From positions 639 through 64,638 of the forward strand of contig JBAZZL010000003.1 in the NCBI GenBank assembly GCA_041658785.1: 64,000 bases of DNA. Direction: 5' to 3'. This document shows positions 2,147-50,137 of the stretch, in pieces. The notes beneath the pieces are model-generated. The model was not told the DNA's origin and made no database searches. It worked only from the letters and a program-made list of their open reading frames with translations. The stretch's first letter is position 1, and each line of letters starts with the position of its first letter. The position numbers were made by a program, and so were the translations under genes. This DNA is from Patescibacteria group bacterium (GTDB lineage: Bacteria; Patescibacteriota; Patescibacteriia; Magasanikbacterales; UBA922).

Positions 2147-2492
2147 TCCCGCGGCAACCGGCAAAATAACAGACACTATCGGTATTTTTTGTTTTTTTGG
2201 AATGTAATGAACGTTGTCACCAGTCACAAGACACATGCCACGCATCATCCCTGCGATTTGTAAGCGCGGCTCACAGCTTACAACGCAAGCAAGCGCCGGT
2301 CATGGCGCTTGCGCTGGGCTCCGATTGAGCCGCGCAACCACCACGAAGGCGGCCAACGGAACCTCGCGAGAGTCCCCTTGACCGATGGTGGTTGCTTTGT
2401 TTAATTGTTTAATTGTTTAATTGTTACATTGTCAAATTGTTACATTGTTATTATGTTGTCGGTGTTGCAGTGTTGCAGCGCTGTCGTCTTAT

Positions 2493-3155
2493 TTACTTCA
2501 CCGTTACCCGTTTGTCCCAATATTCAACTGATTTTTTATACTCCTCGGGGTCAAGCGGCACGCCGCTGCCGCCGTATTCTTTGCCCAGAGCGTTACGGAG
2601 CATTGTTGTCGGATCAATCGGTTCTGCTTCCGGCGTGGGCAGGCCCATAATTTTCACAATCCCCCAATCGGCCGCGGGCACATCCGCCTCGCCGCTCGCT
2701 TCCGCTTCTTTTCGCAGTTGATCCTGGCGGTAAAGAACGATTCCCAAATAATTTGCCGCAGGCGTCTCCACTCCTTCGGCCCAGCGCGTCAAAACTGGCA
2801 GTTCATTTTCACGGCGCGCCTCAAAACCGTTCCGAATTTCCCCCCGATTTTCGTCCGTGATTTCCACGGAACCCACCCGCGCGTCGGTAAAATTTTCCAC
2901 AAAGAGCAGGCGGCAAAAATCGGCATATCCGGGCTTTACTGTTGCCCCGGCCAAGCGCGCCGCCAGCTCCTGTTCAAACTCTTCCGGCGTATGGCTGGAA
3001 ATTTTCGTGCCGGCAAAATCTTTTTTAAAATGCCGCTTGACGAATTCAGTCATGCCGGCGGACGAAATCGTCAACCCCTCTTTTTGCTCGGCGTCAGAAT
3101 GTTCCGCGTTCACGGACGGCCGCTCGCCGGTATTTTCGTTGGTCATAGGTGTCAT
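2493..3155 (-). CDS. hypothetical protein
   Basis: 220 aa ORF, acidic, balanced composition, no recognisable motif. It lies between repeat-rich intergenic regions. Confidence 0.45.
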   Translation of the reverse strand: MTPMTNENTGERPSVNAEHSDAEQKEGLTISSAGMTEFVKRHFKKDFAGTKISSHTPEEFEQELAARLAGATVKPGYADFCRLLFVENFTDARVGSVEITDENRGEIRNGFEARRENELPVLTRWAEGVETPAANYLGIVLYRQDQLRKEAEASGEADVPAADWGIVKIMGLPTPEAEPIDPTTMLRNALGKEYGGSGVPLDPEEYKKSVEYWDKRVTVK

Positions 3156-3276
3156 AGATAATGTGAGTTAAGAATAAATACGATAATTATATCATGTAAC
3201 GTGTAGCGTGTAACTTGTAACGTGGCGCACATTTTTAAAAATAGAATATCCACATTCCGCAACGGGAAAATGATAT

Positions 3277-3744: not shown

Positions 3745-3839
3745 GCAATCCAACGATCTTTTGATTTTCCGATCTTTTGATCTTCAATCACCCCATCACC
3801 CCATCCTCCTCCACAATCCCTGAATTATCAGAAACTTTG

Positions 3840-4140
3840 GAAGGTGGCGAAGCGAGTGAAGCTTCGCCGCCAAGTGCGTCCAACGAGGGATTAGGAAATC
3901 CCGAATTGTTGGACTTCCCCGCCATGCAAATAGGCGGGGCGTTTGGTGGGAAGGCGGATCGGGAATTAGGTCGTCCGATCCGCCGCGTACTGCGGTGGCC
4001 CGCTTTTTGGGCTTTGGCCGGTACGCGCGGCCTGACGTCTCATCCTCTTACTGCTCCGTCGGAACGGAGCAGGGGACGTCCGCGATCGACGCGGCCCCAC
4101 CTGCCCCACCCTCGTAATGGGTGAAGATCAGGTGGCACCG
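3840..4140. repeat. GC-rich array of at least six perfect stem-loops; candidate structured RNA or a REP-like cluster
   Basis: Perfect stems at 3846-3868, 3887-3902, 3917-3939, 3953-3984 (10 bp), 4051-4072 (9 bp) and 4097-4136 (nested). Confidence 0.4.
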
Positions 4141-4440
4141 CCCATCCGCGGCGTCCCGAAAGAGAATGAGATCGTTCGGCCCGAAATCATCCACGAGGAC
4201 GACCTCGAACCGGCCCGATTCTCCGCCGGTCGTCTCACCGACCTCCACTGGCGGGCGATTTGCCAACCAGATGGCGCCGATGAGAACTGCCAACACCAGG
4301 CCAAAGAGAATGGCCCATATTGGCTCCCGGCGGAGAAGGGACAGAAGGGATCTCATCCCTTTGTCCTTTCCGCCAATCCTTATCGTGTTCCCGATTTTCA
4401 TCGGAACGGGACAAACCCGCCGGATTTCAGCAAGGGACAC
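4048..4440 (-). CDS. hypothetical small membrane protein; the start is uncertain, with M29 at 4356 as an alternative
   Basis: One clear TM helix (IWAILFGLVLAVLIGAIWLA). It is the most protein-like frame in a GC-rich block where the overlapping plus-strand ORFs look spurious. Confidence 0.3.
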   Translation of the reverse strand: MSLAEIRRVCPVPMKIGNTIRIGGKDKGMRSLLSLLRREPIWAILFGLVLAVLIGAIWLANRPPVEVGETTGGESGRFEVVLVDDFGPNDLILFRDAADGRCHLIFTHYEGGAGGAASIADVPCSVPTEQ

Positions 4441-8190: not shown

Positions 8191-9320
8191 TACCGACTGC
8201 CTTTCTCTCCACCACCTTGCGGCGGTCAAGAGAAGGCGCACTCGGTACCACATTCTCTGGTGAAAATGTGGAGCGGTCGCGAGGGAGTTTTGACCGAATC
8301 GCTTCAGCCAAAGCTATCAACCTCCACCGCCGTTCCCCGATTTAATCGGAGAAAAAAACCAGATGTGTATCTCACATCGCCGATAGGACTCTCTCCTATT
8401 TTTCATACGGGCAATGCGGGATCAAACACTTGAATTTAATGAACCTATAGTCAGATATATTCCACTCTTGCTCGCAACCGGATTAACAACCGACAAGCGT
8501 TTGTCAATCCAAGTCTATTGAGCAGGGATTATTCCGACAGAACAGGTGGCATGGCTTTTACCCGTCCGAGTGTCGCTCGCGCGGCAGGTGGACAGATATT
8601 TGCTTGTCAGAGGATGTCCGCAGGCATTGGGCAATAAATATTACTTTTCCCCGCCAATGGACACTGTGATCTCTCTCCATGTCACCCCATCTATCGGAAC
8701 AAAAAATCCCTCTTTGGGGAAAGGGGGTTTGATTTCAGATTTCAGATTGCAGATTTATTTCACAAATCAATCTCCAATCTCTTGATCTTTTGATCTTTAG
8801 ATCTTTTGATCTTCAATCGTTCATTTTGCCCTCTCTCCAAGGCAATTTTTGTTATAAGTTGTATTGAACGGTCTCTTTTGCTTTTTGATTTTAACAGAAC
8901 AGTATAACATCATTTGGGGTAATTGTCAAGAGTTGTTTGGAAATTGGAAATTAGTAATTGGTAATTTGTTTTATTTGAGCTAAATTTTGTCATAAAAAAT
9001 ATGTCTATTCTTTACTTGACATATTTATTTGGCTATGTTATACTATGTTTATGATTAGCCAAGAAAATTGTATCTCCATCTTAAATTATTTCATGGGGTT
9101 TCAATGAAAAAAAACGTATATTTGGCTAAAATAACTGTTGTAATTAGTAAATGGTAAACAGTAATTGATAATTGTTCCATTGCCCCATTGTCCTATTGTC
9201 AATTACTAATTACAATTTACAAATTACCCAATCGCCCAATTACCAATTTCTATTTACCATTTACCCTCAAATTAGAACCATCCGTAAATCAGGATTATCC
9301 GTCATCCGTAAGTTAAACCT

Positions 9321-33787: not shown

Positions 33788-33923
33788 CTTCATCCGTTTT
33801 CAGTTTTTAACGATAGCCCAGAGAGGCGATCGTTTTTTTGTTATTCTTGCGATGTTTCTTTTTGGCTTGTTTTTTCTTTTTGTACATATTAGTTTGAAAG
33901 TAAAAAGTTAAAAGTTTATAAAG

Positions 33924-34730
33924 TTATTGTTTATCCAAGTATTGGTTGTAGAGATTTCTTAATTGTTGCAATTCATTTGAAATTTTTGCGAATGATTGTT
34001 TGTTGATGGTTTTGATTGGAACAATTTTACCGGAAGTATTGGTTAAAAAAGCTCCATCGCAGTCAAATATTTTGGTAAGAGGAATATCCTGCTCTTTTAT
34101 TTTATAACCATTTTGGGTGGCGCAGTCAATGACGGTTTTTCGTGTAATACCCGAGAGCACCTCTTTTTCAGGTGGAGTATATAGTATTTTGCCTTTAATA
34201 GCAAAAAAGTTTGAACGCGTTCCCTCGGTGATGTTTCCGGCGCGGTCAAGCAAAAGCGCGTCGTAAGCGCCGGCTGCTTTGGCTTTTTGATAAGCGACGT
34301 AACTCGGCAGCATGTTTAGTGTCTTGGCTTGCGGAGCAAAACGTTCGTAAGCAAATGTGATTACTTTCACTCCGTCGCGATAGTCCTTTTTTTCTACAAA
34401 TAATGGATTAAGCATGAAAATGAACAGCTTTGGTTCTTTTCCGCCCAAAAGAATCACTTTGATATTGGCGGTTTCAATTTTATTCATTTTAACCAACTCT
34501 TGAATCCAGCCCCCAACCTGTTTTTGTTTGTAATTGTGTTGGAGATCAATTTGTTTGGCCGAGTAAAACAGCCGTTCCACATGATCGCTGACGAAAAACA
34601 ATTTTTCGTTTCTGATTTTCAAATTTTCATACACGCCAAAGCCGTACATGAGTTCAATCGTGTCAATTGGGAGGACGGCGTCTTTGGTTTTAATTAATTT
34701 GCCGTTTAATGAGGCGCAGGGGCCGAGCAT
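33924..34730 (-). CDS. class IV aminotransferase (branched-chain / D-amino-acid aminotransferase family)
   Basis: EGTRSNFF motif, fold-type IV PLP enzyme. Confidence 0.75.
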   Translation of the reverse strand: MLGPCASLNGKLIKTKDAVLPIDTIELMYGFGVYENLKIRNEKLFFVSDHVERLFYSAKQIDLQHNYKQKQVGGWIQELVKMNKIETANIKVILLGGKEPKLFIFMLNPLFVEKKDYRDGVKVITFAYERFAPQAKTLNMLPSYVAYQKAKAAGAYDALLLDRAGNITEGTRSNFFAIKGKILYTPPEKEVLSGITRKTVIDCATQNGYKIKEQDIPLTKIFDCDGAFLTNTSGKIVPIKTINKQSFAKISNELQQLRNLYNQYLDKQ

Positions 34731-34775: not shown

Positions 34776-35516
34776 TTATAATGTTATAGTTAAATCATCA
34801 AAAGCCGCCCGGCTGTTCGGAAAAATTTGTTTAGCGATTCTTTCCGCCTTTTTTCTTGACGCGATTGAATCGTATCTGTCCGCTCCAAAGTGGGTCAGGA
34901 ATAGCCGTTTGGCTCCGGCTTTTTTGGCGATCGCCGCCGCTTCCTTCGGATTGGCGTGGCCCCAGACATCGCTTTCGCCCGGCAAAAAAGCGCATTCGTG
35001 AACGAGAATATCCGCGTTTTTGCCAAGAGCGATTGCATTGTCGCATGGGCCGGTGTCGGAACAATAAGAAATAATTTTATTTTCCAGATAAAGTCTGTAT
35101 CCCAAAGTTAAGTCCGCGTGTTTTAGCAATCGGCAATCAAACTTAAGCGGTTTTTTATAACTGCCTTGTTTCAGCCCGATAATCTTTGCTTTATATTTAA
35201 GATTTTTTAAAGCGCCGGTGAAAGGATGATTGATGATAAATTTGAATTTTTGCATTGATTCTTGGGCGAGTAAAATTGTGAGGGGTTGCTTGAAATCAAA
35301 CAGCGGCAGAAGATGCATGCCGTAGATGTGATCCAGGTGCAGATGACTGATAAAAAGGTAAACTGGCTTATCTTTTTTATAATATTTTTTTAATTTATGG
35401 ATGCCAAGACCCGCATCCAGGATGATGTATTTGTCTTTGGTTTCTATCAGAGTGCAAATGGTGTTGCCGATCTTGGTGTCAAACCAGCCGTTGGTGCCGA
35501 GGAAGGTGATTTGCAT
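34776..35516 (-). CDS. MBL-fold metallo-hydrolase
   Basis: HLHLDHIYG metal-binding motif. Confidence 0.75.
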   Translation of the reverse strand: MQITFLGTNGWFDTKIGNTICTLIETKDKYIILDAGLGIHKLKKYYKKDKPVYLFISHLHLDHIYGMHLLPLFDFKQPLTILLAQESMQKFKFIINHPFTGALKNLKYKAKIIGLKQGSYKKPLKFDCRLLKHADLTLGYRLYLENKIISYCSDTGPCDNAIALGKNADILVHECAFLPGESDVWGHANPKEAAAIAKKAGAKRLFLTHFGADRYDSIASRKKAERIAKQIFPNSRAAFDDLTITL

Positions 35517-35520
35517 AGAA

Positions 35521-35612
35521 GTTGTAAGTTGTAAGTTGTAAGTTGTAAGTTGTAAGTTGTAAGTTGTAAGTTGTAAGTTGTAAGTTGTAAGTTGTAAGTT
35601 GTAAAGTTGCGA
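35521..35612. repeat. (TTGTAAG)n tandem heptamer array, ~12 units
   Basis: Read directly. It is the inverted counterpart of 35974-36018. Confidence 0.9.
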
Positions 35613-35613
35613 G

Positions 35614-35973
35614 TTACTTTTGAACCTTCATCCAACCGTATAGCAGGCGGCCGCATTCTTCCAGATTTTTAAATAGGCCATCATATTCTTTGAGAGACAT
35701 GTAATCTAGGTCTTTTGCCAATAGCAAATGATATTTTAATTCTTCCAGCGACGCAAGGGCGATGTTATAAAATCGCAATGAATCACCTACACACTTTCTT
35801 TTGAAACCTTCCGCAATATTTGCTGGAAATGAAATGGCTGCGCGGCACGATTGGTCAACCAATCTAAACCTTTCATCAGAAGGATATTTTTTTGTAACCA
35901 GGTATACTTTTAGGACCATCGCGTGTCCTTTTTGCCAAGCCAATATTTCTTTAAATGTTCTTATCCCTGCCAT
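35614..35973 (-). CDS. four-helix-bundle protein (23S rRNA intervening-sequence protein family)
   Basis: 119 aa. ...ISFPANIAEGFKR... is typical of PF05635. Confidence 0.7.
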   Translation of the reverse strand: MAGIRTFKEILAWQKGHAMVLKVYLVTKKYPSDERFRLVDQSCRAAISFPANIAEGFKRKCVGDSLRFYNIALASLEELKYHLLLAKDLDYMSLKEYDGLFKNLEECGRLLYGWMKVQK

Positions 35974-36018
35974 AAGCTTACAACTTTACAACTTACAACT
36001 TTACAACTTACAACCCAC
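35974..36018. repeat. (CTTACAA / CTTTACAA)n array, reverse complement of the 35521 array
   Basis: Read directly; together the two arrays are long inverted arms around the 4HB gene. Confidence 0.85.
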
Positions 36019-36019
36019 A

Positions 36020-36970
36020 TCAATCAAAATACCCAAACCCCCACCAATCATACGGATCAACATAGCGGAAATTGATATTTAGGGCATTGATTTTTTTTAT
36101 ATCGTCAACTAGTAAAGAGAAATCAAATATAGCGATGTTTTCTTTTATCCGTTCTGGGTTTACACTTTTGGGAATGACGATGATATTTCTTTCAATCAGC
36201 CAGCGCAAGAGAATCTGGGCCGGGGTTTTGTTATGTTTTCGGGACAGTTCTAATATGATCGGATTATCAATAAGCGGGGACGGGCAATTTGCCGGCAGAT
36301 CATGAGTGCCGGGTTGATATCCCGGCCGGCCCAGCGGAGAATACGCCGTGACGGCGATGCCATGTTTTTGACAGAATTCCACCAGTCTAGGTTGGGAATT
36401 GTAAGCGTGTATTTCCACCTGATTCATCGCCGGTTTGATTTTGGCGTAAGTTAAAAGATCAAACAGCATCATGGTTGTGAAATTGGAAACGCCGATTGAT
36501 TTTACCAGCCCCTTTTCCACTAATTTTTCCATCGCTTCCCAAGTTTCCCGGATCGGAATGGGATCCATCGGCGGCGCGGCGCTGTTCTTTTTATCATATA
36601 CCGCGCCGGCAGAGAGGGCATACCCCCAGTGCATCAAGTAAAGATCCAGATAGTCCAATTTTAAATCAGTCAAAGTTTTTTTGCCGGCCGCTTCCACTTT
36701 ATTTCGCGTATGCTCGCTGTTCCAGAGTTTGCTCGTGACAAAGATTTCTTCGCGTTTTATTTTGCCGCTAGCGAAAATTTTGGCAAAGGCCGCGCCGATT
36801 TCCGGTTCGTTTTCATAAATCGCGGCGCAGTCAATATGGCGATAGCCGGCTTGGGTGATGGCGTATTCCACCGCTTGCCCCACCTCGCTTGGAGCGGATT
36901 TCCAGGTGCCGAGGCCGAGCTGGGGCATTTGGGCACCGGTGTTAAGTTTGACGCTGGGTTGGTTGGACAT
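36020..36970 (-). CDS. aldo/keto reductase
   Basis: AKR catalytic tetrad context (GYRHIDCAAIY, LWNS, IPKS). Confidence 0.85.
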   Translation of the reverse strand: MSNQPSVKLNTGAQMPQLGLGTWKSAPSEVGQAVEYAITQAGYRHIDCAAIYENEPEIGAAFAKIFASGKIKREEIFVTSKLWNSEHTRNKVEAAGKKTLTDLKLDYLDLYLMHWGYALSAGAVYDKKNSAAPPMDPIPIRETWEAMEKLVEKGLVKSIGVSNFTTMMLFDLLTYAKIKPAMNQVEIHAYNSQPRLVEFCQKHGIAVTAYSPLGRPGYQPGTHDLPANCPSPLIDNPIILELSRKHNKTPAQILLRWLIERNIIVIPKSVNPERIKENIAIFDFSLLVDDIKKINALNINFRYVDPYDWWGFGYFD

Positions 36971-47130: not shown

Positions 47131-48504
47131 TTATACTGACGTTTCTTGTTGATAAGATGTGGCGATCAGCAAAGCGGGTAAGAGCCAAAATAATATTGCC
47201 AAATCATTTTTTATATATGGACTGTCAACTAAGCCAGTAACAACAATCGCGGTCATACTCGCGAGTAAAAAGATTGAAAGATTAAAAGATTGAAAGCTTG
47301 ACGTATTATCTTTAATCTTACAATCTTTTAATCTTTTAATCTTTAATACCCCAATTATTCCAGTTTTGAAGAACCAGACCATTATTAACAGAAAACCCAC
47401 AAGTCCGGTTAAACCCAAACCCACCCACATCGTTAAGAAAATATTATGCGGATGATGAAAGATTTCAATGCCCTCGCCGTTGACCGCAGTGTGATAGGGA
47501 ATGATTTTTTCTTTATAAGACGCCAGACCGGCGCCGAAGATTGGGTTGTCTTTTAGAAATTGCCAGGTTTCCTGATAAATAGAGAGGCGGATTTGGCCGG
47601 AGCGGTCTTGGAGAGTTAATTCTTTTTTGATGGGATTGTAAGCGGGGAGAAGGGCAAGGGTAAGGAGGCCGGAAGCCAGAAGGATGATGGTGATTAGCCG
47701 CGTTTTTTTATAAAAAAATAATAAGAGCGCGATTCCCGCGGCGAGGCCGGCGAGGCCGCCGGTGGATTTGGCGAAAATAATTGCCAGTGGTGATGAAATT
47801 AGAAATAAGAAACTAGAAACTAGGGTCAGCCAGTTTCCAGTTTCCAGTTTCCAGTTTCTTTTTTTCAACCTCTGAAAAGATTGGATTAGCAAATATAACG
47901 CAATCGGCACAATCGGCGCAAGAAACAATCCTACCGCATTCGGAAATCCATACCACCCAGTAACGCGGAAGGCGTTGCCGTTTTCCCAAAATGCGTAAGG
48001 AACCATGAAACCCGTGAAATGTTGATAGATGGCGAGAAGCGAAGTTGCCAGTCCGGATAGAATGAGAGCAAATAGGATTAAAGATTGAAGATTGAAGATT
48101 AAAGATTTTGTGGTTGATTGTTGATTGTTGATGGTGGTAATTAGGATAATGAAGATTAGAAACGGTTCAATGTAAAACGCTTTCCATTCCCCAGCCGCCG
48201 CTCGGACGTCAACCGAAGTGAATATTGAAGCGGTGGCGGCTACCAGGAAAATGAATGACCCGATGAATAAAATTTTATGTCGTAAAATCTGAAATCTGAA
48301 ATTTGAAATCTGAAATCTTTTGACAATCCAAACGGCGATGATAATCCAAATCATCGCTTCCAGCAGTGTCGTCGGCAACGGTCCAATATTGAAGCGGATT
48401 AAATATGTCGGCAATAGGAGAAATAAAAAAAACAGGCTGAGGCGGAAACGCAACCACGTGATTAAAACGAAGAATAATGAGTAAAGAATAATGAGTAGCG
48501 GCAT
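47131..48504 (-). CDS. O-antigen ligase / polymerase family membrane protein (Wzy_C domain)
   Basis: >10 TM helices; periplasmic loop with ...IFGAGLASY. The gene contains four 7-8-bp tandem-repeat tracts. Confidence 0.65.
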   Translation of the reverse strand: MPLLIILYSLFFVLITWLRFRLSLFFLFLLLPTYLIRFNIGPLPTTLLEAMIWIIIAVWIVKRFQISNFRFQILRHKILFIGSFIFLVAATASIFTSVDVRAAAGEWKAFYIEPFLIFIILITTINNQQSTTKSLIFNLQSLILFALILSGLATSLLAIYQHFTGFMVPYAFWENGNAFRVTGWYGFPNAVGLFLAPIVPIALYLLIQSFQRLKKRNWKLETGNWLTLVSSFLFLISSPLAIIFAKSTGGLAGLAAGIALLLFFYKKTRLITIILLASGLLTLALLPAYNPIKKELTLQDRSGQIRLSIYQETWQFLKDNPIFGAGLASYKEKIIPYHTAVNGEGIEIFHHPHNIFLTMWVGLGLTGLVGFLLIMVWFFKTGIIGVLKIKRLKDCKIKDNTSSFQSFNLSIFLLASMTAIVVTGLVDSPYIKNDLAILFWLLPALLIATSYQQETSV

Positions 48505-49983: not shown

Positions 49984-50137
49984 AATATCTTGTAACGCGC
50001 AACCTGTAACTTGTAACATACCATGCGTTTTTTGTCATTAAGATAAGTTACAAGTTACCGGTTACACGATGTAGGTTACAGTATATAGGAGAAAATTTCA
50101 ATTGCCACCCATCCGTTATTTTGTTATAATTATTCGC

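Follow-up and report, generated by a model that had tools for sequence, protein, structure and literature searches.

Why does a gene of the 23S rRNA intervening-sequence (IVS) protein family lie between two protein-coding genes, enclosed by inverted arrays of a heptamer? The question arises from a 64,000-nt stretch of a genome assigned to a Patescibacteria group bacterium (assembly GCA_041658785.1, contig JBAZZL010000003.1, positions 639 to 64,638), which we call the window. A first-pass annotation, made from the letters of this stretch, had noted a PF05635-like gene between such arrays and suggested a mobile IVS-like module or a hairpin-bounded selfish element. Our analysis leads to a similar answer: the structure is probably a mobile or selfish IVS-type cassette, made of a four-helix-bundle (4HB) gene and complementary heptamer arms specific to its lineage, lodged in an operon spacer of a member of the Candidate Phyla Radiation (CPR).

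A four-helix-bundle gene between heptamer arms

The cassette takes up the whole of the 503-nt spacer between the genes for an aldo/keto reductase (AKR) and an MBL-fold hydrolase. In the direction of transcription the features are as follows.

36020–36970, minus strand: AKR, the upstream neighbour, in the same orientation as the 4HB gene; presumed source of read-through
35977–36014, minus strand: 5' arm (gene sense), GTTGTAAG/GTTGTAAAG units, about 5 copies, 38 nt; 5 nt past the AKR stop codon and 3 nt before the 4HB ATG
35614–35973, minus strand: 4HB gene, 119 aa, PF05635 / TIGR02436 (23S rRNA-IVS protein family), pI 9.3
35519–35609, minus strand: 3' arm (gene sense), (CTTACAA) in about 13 copies, 91 nt; ends about 3 nt before the MBL ATG
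34776–35516, minus strand: MBL-fold hydrolase, the downstream neighbour, in the same orientation as the 4HB gene

Read along the minus strand, the AKR stop codon is followed by 5 nt, the short arm, 3 nt and the ATG, reading frame and stop codon of the 4HB gene; then come about 4 nt, the long arm, about 3 nt and the ATG of the MBL gene. Both arms end 3–5 nt from a neighbouring stop or start codon. In gene sense the units are (GTTGTAA/GTTGTAAA)x5 upstream and (CTTACAA)x13 downstream. Tandem Repeats Finder reports a period of 7 with 12.9 copies and 98% matches for 35519–35609, and 5.1 copies with a period of 7/15 for 35977–36014, where units of 7 and 8 nt alternate. The bracketing of a PF05635-like gene by inverted heptamer arrays is therefore confirmed by the repeat finder, by the profile match given below and by the sequence itself, as is its position between protein-coding genes (AKR and MBL) instead of in rRNA. 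The first-pass counts of 12 and 6 units should read about 13 and 5, and its orientation needs correcting: all three genes, the 4HB gene and its two neighbours, are on the minus strand, which makes the short arm the 5' arm.

The locus is present in three independent assemblies and is thus not an assembly artefact. Two other contigs, L001 and L002, each independently assembled, encode a protein identical to that of the window. The L001 cassette is the same as the window's, and that of L002 is longer by one CTTACAA unit in its long arm, with no change to the short one; copy number from these short-read assemblies is not fully reliable, though a 91-nt array fits within read length. Array copy number drifts by single units. 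Independent variation of the arms, which the first-pass annotation took to speak against its proposal, is confined to copy number, as in L002; in sequence, the units of one arm remain the complement of those of the other throughout. The closest named relatives of the AKR and MBL neighbours are Patescibacteria, mostly Magasanikbacteria.

The two arrays are mutually reverse complementary, with a longest perfect match of 21 nt. An ungapped pairing of 43 nt is 77% complementary, and the best gapped alignment contains 38 Watson-Crick pairs, 3 G·U and 1 A·C. When the RNA of 35510–36025 (minus strand) is folded, a predicted stem of about 42 bp closes the reading frame (minimum free energy −142.8 kcal/mol, z = −5.5), in line with the 40 bp or more that had been anticipated; none of 100 shuffles folded as well. 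About 42 nt of the 3' arm pair with the 5' arm, and the surplus 3' units are single-stranded in this fold. The centroid structure lacks the arm stem because many pairing registers are possible.

The protein belongs to its family by the curated thresholds of both models, scoring 107.6 bits against PF05635 (E=4.8e-31; cut-off 33.8) and 102.2 bits against TIGR02436 (cut-off 24). The family alignment keeps the motif RAAxSxPxNIAEG and has 24 invariant columns across 20 sequences at 48–71% identity. Like the family as a whole (median pI 9.1), the window protein is basic. The solved structures closest to it are 2GSC (E=3.7e-13) and 2RLD, both of them entries with five chains, and by homology to them it probably adopts a four-helix-bundle fold and assembles as a pentamer. 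No further 4HB paralog or relic was found in the window by phmmer, by tblastn with 120 homologs or by a hidden Markov model run on six-frame translations, and the PADLOC defence-system libraries gave no match.

The cassette at other loci

If the arms belong with the gene, they should accompany it elsewhere. We scanned a 20-sequence alignment against one genome per species; of the 593 relatives obtained, the 80 best loci, spread over more than 15 phyla, were taken for analysis. These loci are the best matches to one subfamily; the array thresholds are arbitrary, the phylum labels are taken from the titles of metagenome-assembled genomes, and the orientation of neighbours comes from crude reading-frame calls.

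The four close homologs (64–71% identity) lie on unrelated contigs among differing housekeeping genes, with both neighbours co-oriented in all four, and each has degenerate 7–8-nt repeats upstream and their complement downstream. The same design extends to the larger set. A fixed detector finds an upstream array at 52 of the 80 loci, a downstream array at 50 and both at 41. The duplex between upstream and downstream flanks, compared with dinucleotide shuffles at 81 loci, reaches z < −2 in 42, < −3 in 30 and < −4 in 19, and the flanks are also more complementary than those of pseudo-genes placed at shifted positions within the same loci (paired Wilcoxon p = 1.6e-4). Self-match at lag 7 is 0.42 in both flanks compared with 0.26 in controls, and lags 3–6 and 9–12 are flat.

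The arms are also polar. The purine fraction on the coding strand is 0.66 in the upstream arm and 0.36 in the downstream arm; the upstream arm ends a median of 26 nt before the start codon, and the downstream arm starts a median of 6.5 nt past the stop. At least two reading frames are closed by the upstream arm in 30 of 52 loci; for the downstream arm, read on the same strand, the figure is 14 of 50. These stop codons may simply follow from purine richness. The upstream neighbour is co-oriented with the 4HB gene in 63 of 73 loci. Neighbouring genes differ at every homologous locus examined, and none of the 20 homologous loci scanned for it is embedded in rRNA.

Complementary array pairs spaced 150–1500 nt apart in all the DNA that we fetched bracket a 4HB gene in 39 of 49 cases, a proportion that says nothing on how common other cargo is, given that this DNA was selected for 4HB genes. 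Among these pairs there is only one clearly different small cargo, a 133-aa PD-(D/E)XK_3 (PF13366) gene at 3787–4254 of locus L003, which lies between two iPGM paralogs and inside complementary ATCCGGAT-type octamer arrays. It is a second small-gene family with the bracketed layout.

The arm units differ between loci, and their similarity rises with protein identity. Shared arm 5-mers amount to 4% below 45% protein identity, 17% at 55–65% and 43% above 65%. A Mantel test of arm against protein similarity gives rho = 0.25, a value that none of 2000 permutations reaches; for cross-phylum pairs alone rho = 0.24, again with 0 of 2000. Pairs from the same phylum with dissimilar proteins share 5% of arm 5-mers, no more than background, and paralogous cassettes within one genome bear different units. 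Since the unit tracks the protein, across phyla too, it belongs to the lineage of the cassette and not to the genome that hosts it. Two histories would fit these comparisons: transfer and joint divergence of complete cassettes, or co-evolution of protein and repeat.

Movement and decay can be followed in a syntenic CPR relative, L112, whose AKR, aminotransferase IV, PfkB and AdoHcyase are 71%, 75%, 84% and 83% identical to those of the window. Two genes beyond its AKR, after aminotransferase IV, L112 has (AGTTGTA)x4.6, a decayed 4HB gene and (AACTTAC)x3.9, which are the window's own units. Residues 1–37 and 93–119 of the decayed gene remain, with a frameshift. Upstream of the AKR, L112 also has a gene-less (AGTTGTA)5/(TTACAACT)3 hairpin. 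The orthologous junction of the window holds what is probably a relic of the same kind:

33894–33927, minus strand: degenerate array of a pyrimidine arm (AACTTTT-like, x4), directly after the aminotransferase-IV stop codon and orthologous to the junction of the decayed L112 cassette; probably what is left of a second cassette of the same family

This relic precedes the same conserved small basic reading frame as in L112. The frame, which encodes 26 very basic residues (MYKKKKQAKKKHRKNNKKTIASLGYR), follows aminotransferase IV at 33807–33887 (minus strand) in the window and at about 7704–7785 in L112, and is a called gene in L001. Taking the window and L112 together, one cassette family therefore turns up at three junctions of the two related genomes, whether intact, decayed or gene-less.

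A second case comes from L114 (IMGVR_UViG_3300037882_004711, 2201–3232), the single match on a contig of a viral collection, where one cassette is nested in another. The outer 4HB gene, with (TTATGAG)n/(CTCATAA)n arms, is broken after about residue 18 by roughly 520 nt. The insert has all the parts of a cassette, an intact gene between (TTAGCTn)n/(AAGCTAA)n arms, and it carries a further 35–40 nt or so with a small GC-rich hairpin outside each array. A 2-nt GT at the junction might be a target duplication, as a trace too faint to build on. Beyond it the outer reading frame resumes at the matching residue; it is 78% identical to the inner copy and is also frameshifted. This nesting, seen on one contig, is the clearest indication of gene and arms moving as one piece of DNA.

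Differing sites in related genomes and an insertion that interrupts another sequence are what is generally expected of a mobile element. Mobility of the gene plus its arms is well supported by these sequence comparisons, which draw on one syntenic relative and one nested contig. Together with the link between arm and protein lineage, the L112 copies and the L114 nest also favour the mobile or hairpin-bounded selfish element of the first-pass annotation. The basic and probably pentameric 4HB protein would be the obvious candidate factor for movement of the DNA.

How the arms may act

How would such a cassette be tolerated in an operon? We propose that it has no promoter of its own and would be read through from the upstream gene. 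The arms would then pair in the transcript to form the stem of about 42 bp that closes the reading frame, and RNase III would cut this stem, as it does in the 23S IVSs of Coxiella and Leptospira. By this cut the 4HB message would be freed or inactivated and the cistrons on either side separated unharmed, and for this reason insertion could be tolerated in operons and rRNA alike. We arrive at this model because the cassette is co-oriented with its neighbours, because promoter and terminator scans find no signal above shuffled expectation inside it, because the arms are polar on the coding strand and because Coxiella offers a precedent.

Several observations weigh against the picture of a mobile IVS-type cassette processed as RNA. 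RNase III cleavage enters the model at this locus by analogy, and the Coxiella family member, S23p, is possibly not translated (PMC4990558). About a third to a half of the homologous loci have no detectable arrays; the arms are thus frequent, not obligatory. The window itself is rich in gene-less hairpins of other units, and a genome-wide array-forming process independent of 4HB genes may be at work. We found no clean pair of filled and empty orthologous sites for the AKR–MBL junction. The first-pass annotation had proposed comparing synteny in relatives lacking the insert, and L112 answers it in part: the 3' junction of the L112 AKR has no cassette, but the gene that follows is UppS, not MBL. 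The locus of a further AKR ortholog, L113, is not syntenic with the window, and MBL orthologs in metagenomes (18 loci, 38–54% identity) lack conserved synteny, none having an AKR or 4HB gene nearby. Finally, among 33 loci with well-aligned arms, the non-Watson-Crick arm positions comprise 53 G·U and 58 A·C (p = 0.70), and this wobble test gives no sign of selection for pairing in the sense RNA.

With no excess of G·U over A·C the arms look symmetric, and their complementarity therefore looks to be maintained at the DNA level, whether the arms are of recent origin, are matched by template switching inside the hairpin or undergo conversion. This bears on the main rival reading, which is compatible with RNA processing. 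In it the arms act as DNA: a hairpin, a cruciform or pairing during replication would be used by mobility or recombination machinery, template switching would keep the arms matched, and the RNA stem would be a by-product. The lack of wobble bias is what DNA-level homogenisation predicts. Whole cassettes with both arms move as DNA in L114, arms persist as perfect gene-less hairpins after gene loss, and the change of one unit in one arm of L002 shows active replication slippage. However, a strand-symmetric structure predicts neither the purine polarity of the arms nor the co-orientation with upstream neighbours, and the only member studied by experiment, the Coxiella IVS, is processed as RNA. 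That the arms act mainly as DNA is a possibility to be taken seriously, even if we would not expect it to be the answer.

Could the cassette instead be a domesticated host module, with the arrays serving as an operon insulator or a phase-variable switch that tunes MBL and the 4HB protein serving the cell, for example by binding RNA? Conservation of the protein is good, as its invariant columns show, the long arm covers the ribosome-binding region of the MBL gene, and copy number differs between samples; heptamer arrays of Xanthomonas, moreover, lie between co-oriented genes at relatively conserved locations (PMC4692102). A host function fits poorly with neighbours that differ at all loci examined, with copies that decay and nest in each other, and with close relatives that carry the cassette at other junctions. 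We consider this explanation improbable.

A further reading is coincidence, in which CPR spacers are rich in arrays and a 4HB gene has come by chance to lie between two of them. The window is indeed full of arrays: our scan found 21, of which 19 have a period of 7 or 8. Many consist of an array followed by its complement and form gene-less hairpins, with z from −5 to −10, each with a different unit and none with a recognisable 4HB relic. Three of them are listed here.

39244–39309, minus strand: hairpin without a gene, built of 9-nt units (ACGAATTTA / complement), separating two co-oriented his genes; −30.1 kcal/mol, z = −6.0
49989–50089, minus strand: gene-less heptamer hairpin (CTTGTAA.. / ..AAGTTAC) between divergent genes; −35.8 kcal/mol, z = −5.1
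59656–60094, plus strand: longest array, TGGAAAC/TGGAAAT in about 54 units (380 nt), then a complementary arm CCAATTT x6, between convergent genes; terminal part −46.2 kcal/mol, z = −9.8

The last of these is by far the longest in the window, and the unequal lengths of its array and arm resemble those of the 4HB cassette. The his genes around the first belong to a histidine-biosynthesis region (38622–40795, minus strand, and 2–538 of L001) in which HisIE is backed by PRA-CH and PRA-PH Pfam matches; a 493-aa reading frame there looks, from its translation, like a HisA-HisF fusion. Amino-acid biosynthesis is unusual in CPR bacteria.

Arrays also occur within and around other genes. A 457-aa Wzy_C (O-antigen ligase) reading frame at 47131–48504 (minus strand) stays open through four internal heptamer or octamer arrays (47266–47344, 47795–47858, 48074–48132 and 48283–48318), two of which are array-plus-complement hairpins; the repeats appear, from the open frame, to be translated as in-frame insertions. 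The hairpin at 47785–47865 inside this frame has −29.2 kcal/mol and z = −7.2. The DUF3228 gene (2493–3155, minus strand, E=2e-57) is bracketed by complementary arrays within 2397–3224, in gene sense CGTTACA-type upstream and TGTAACAA-type downstream, and array brackets are therefore not strictly limited to 4HB genes in this genome. Between 8100 and 9270, a stretch of about 1.1 kb with no convincing reading frame holds at least six different short-period arrays; two of them, at 8937–8966 and 9201–9265, form a complementary pair 234 nt apart with nothing coding between. This stretch may be a graveyard of decayed cassettes.

The abundance of period 7–8 arrays away from any 4HB gene, some of them inside coding regions, and the bracketed DUF3228 gene are what chance juxtaposition would lead one to expect. 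Against it, both arms are built on one unit and its reverse complement, the arrangement recurs in more than 15 phyla with locus-specific units, it stands out from shifted controls, most complementary array pairs in the fetched DNA bracket a 4HB gene, and the arms follow the protein lineage; coincidence is accordingly very hard to credit.

The reading as an accessory gene (Avd) or remnant of a diversity-generating retroelement (DGR), prompted by weak similarity to Avd models (PF22296, 38.1 bits, cut-off 40; NF033474, 45.5 bits, cut-off 80; PHROG Avd, 34 bits), was rejected as next to impossible, given scores under the cut-offs, AKR and MBL as neighbours, and 7-nt tandem arrays in place of a reverse transcriptase and a pair of template and variable repeats (TR/VR). 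The resemblance that is left is in the protein, a homologous basic four-helix bundle whose solved relatives, with their five chains, fit an Avd-type pentamer. Avd acts through binding nucleic acid and a polymerase.

Known systems that resemble the cassette

The heptamer arms recall the short tandemly repeated repetitive (STRR) sequences of cyanobacteria, the GGGAATC arrays of Xanthomonas and the TAACTGA arrays described in Beggiatoaceae (PMC4679880), all of which, like the arms, are tandem 7-nt units in intergenic spacers. The arrays of Xanthomonas and Nostoc lie between co-oriented genes near stop and start codons, often as convergent (inverted) pairs, and are transcribed (PMC4692102). Two differences can be named. 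Studies of STRR-type arrays treat them as free-standing, with a G-quadruplex or regulatory role, and do not tie them to a gene family; and in Xanthomonas one unit dominates the genome, whereas here each cassette or hairpin has its own.

Some observations connect the two. The cyanobacterial 4HB loci L049, L053 and L081 bear GGGAAYA-type arrays. A supplementary table by Rehm lists a (GGGAATC)x4 array 6 nt from accB that overlaps the annotated start of XCC0516 on the strand of that gene, and its unit is common to about 186 arrays in that genome (PMC4692102). XCC0516 is the PF05635 protein solved as 2GSC. Across our loci, arrays near a cassette share its unit in 7% of cases compared with 0.9% for arrays from other loci, a weak effect (p = 0.04). 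Clear gene-less hairpins with the unit of the cassette occur at L021, L028, L055, L069, L093 and L112, and most neighbouring arrays have other units. The link between dispersed heptamer repeats and 4HB cassettes is suggestive. It is tempting to speculate, although we think it rather unlikely to hold as a whole, that the PF05635 cassette is the autonomous form of a widespread and unrecognised class of mobile element, with heptamer arrays and hairpins (cyanobacterial STRR, Xanthomonas GGGAATC and those of the window) as its footprints or non-autonomous derivatives, and that each 4HB lineage recognises or generates its own heptamer. Such lineage-specific recognition, if true, would explain both the covariation of arm and protein across phyla and the presence of a 7-nt unit everywhere.

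What is already known is that PF05635 genes occur in and outside rRNA IVSs, that RNase III excises IVSs and that heptamer arrays occupy intergenic DNA. What appears to be new is that copies outside rRNA are bracketed by complementary, polar and lineage-specific heptamer arms and move and decay with them as a unit. We found no paper tying non-rRNA PF05635 genes to flanking heptamer arrays in a search that left out most subscription journals, so that a prior description is possible. The cassette joins two oddities that have been described separately, protein-coding 23S rRNA IVSs and the excess of intergenic heptanucleotide tandem repeats. If our reading is right, the rRNA IVS would be no more than the most conspicuous place where a general operon-spacer element has landed, a concrete origin would be at hand for at least some of the heptamer repeats, and the very large "four helix bundle protein" family would gain a biological context. 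It would also point to a natural route by which operons and rRNAs can take up a gene and stay functional. Culturable hosts with members of the family, such as Xanthomonas and Bacteroides, put these questions within reach of experiment.

Miniature transposable elements with inverted repeats (MITEs) and hairpin-forming repetitive extragenic palindromes (REPINs) offer a second comparison. Like them, the cassette forms hairpins from inverted repeats in spacers, and gene-less forms stand beside gene-carrying copies. MITE or REPIN copies in a genome, however, share one sequence and rely on a recognisable transposase, whereas the cassette codes for a protein and its arms differ from copy to copy, both among the hairpins of the window and between paralogous cassettes. 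No transposase is associated with the cassette; the only match in the window is a weak IS200-like one 10 kb away. This 251-aa reading frame (46101–46856, minus strand) is matched in part by the Y1 transposase model PF01797 (E=5e-6, C-terminal 55 residues only). The IS200-like Y1 class mobilises hairpin repeats (REP/REPIN) in other bacteria.

The closest parallel remains the 23S IVS, known from Coxiella burnetii, Leptospira, Haemophilus and CPR bacteria. The Coxiella IVS encodes a PF05635-family member, and its ends form a stem of 28 bp in the middle of which RNase III cuts; directly before its ATG lie purine-rich tandem heptamers (GACAGAT x2–3) whose number varies between strains (PMC4990558). 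Its reading frame is in decay (one strain has lost 176 bp), E. coli takes no harm from expressing its protein, and the sporadic distribution of S23p IVSs suggests horizontal transfer (PMC4990558). In CPR bacteria, 23S_rRNA_IVP reading frames occur in insertions in both 16S and 23S rRNA (PMC11270868). The cassette shares with these IVSs the protein family, the enclosing stem, the upstream heptamers, their variation in copy number and a reading frame prone to decay, and the IVS-like character that the first-pass annotation had attributed to it holds in the parallel of stem and heptamers to Coxiella. Two things set it apart. Both of its arms consist almost wholly of tandem heptamers, the 3' arm being far longer than the stem requires, and it lies between protein-coding genes, not in an rRNA helix; Rfam finds two tRNAs and no rRNA in the window. 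In its closing stem of about 42 bp the cassette has the terminal complementarity of an IVS. Among the traits compared it departs from the definition in location only, and we therefore call it an IVS-type cassette, not an IVS.

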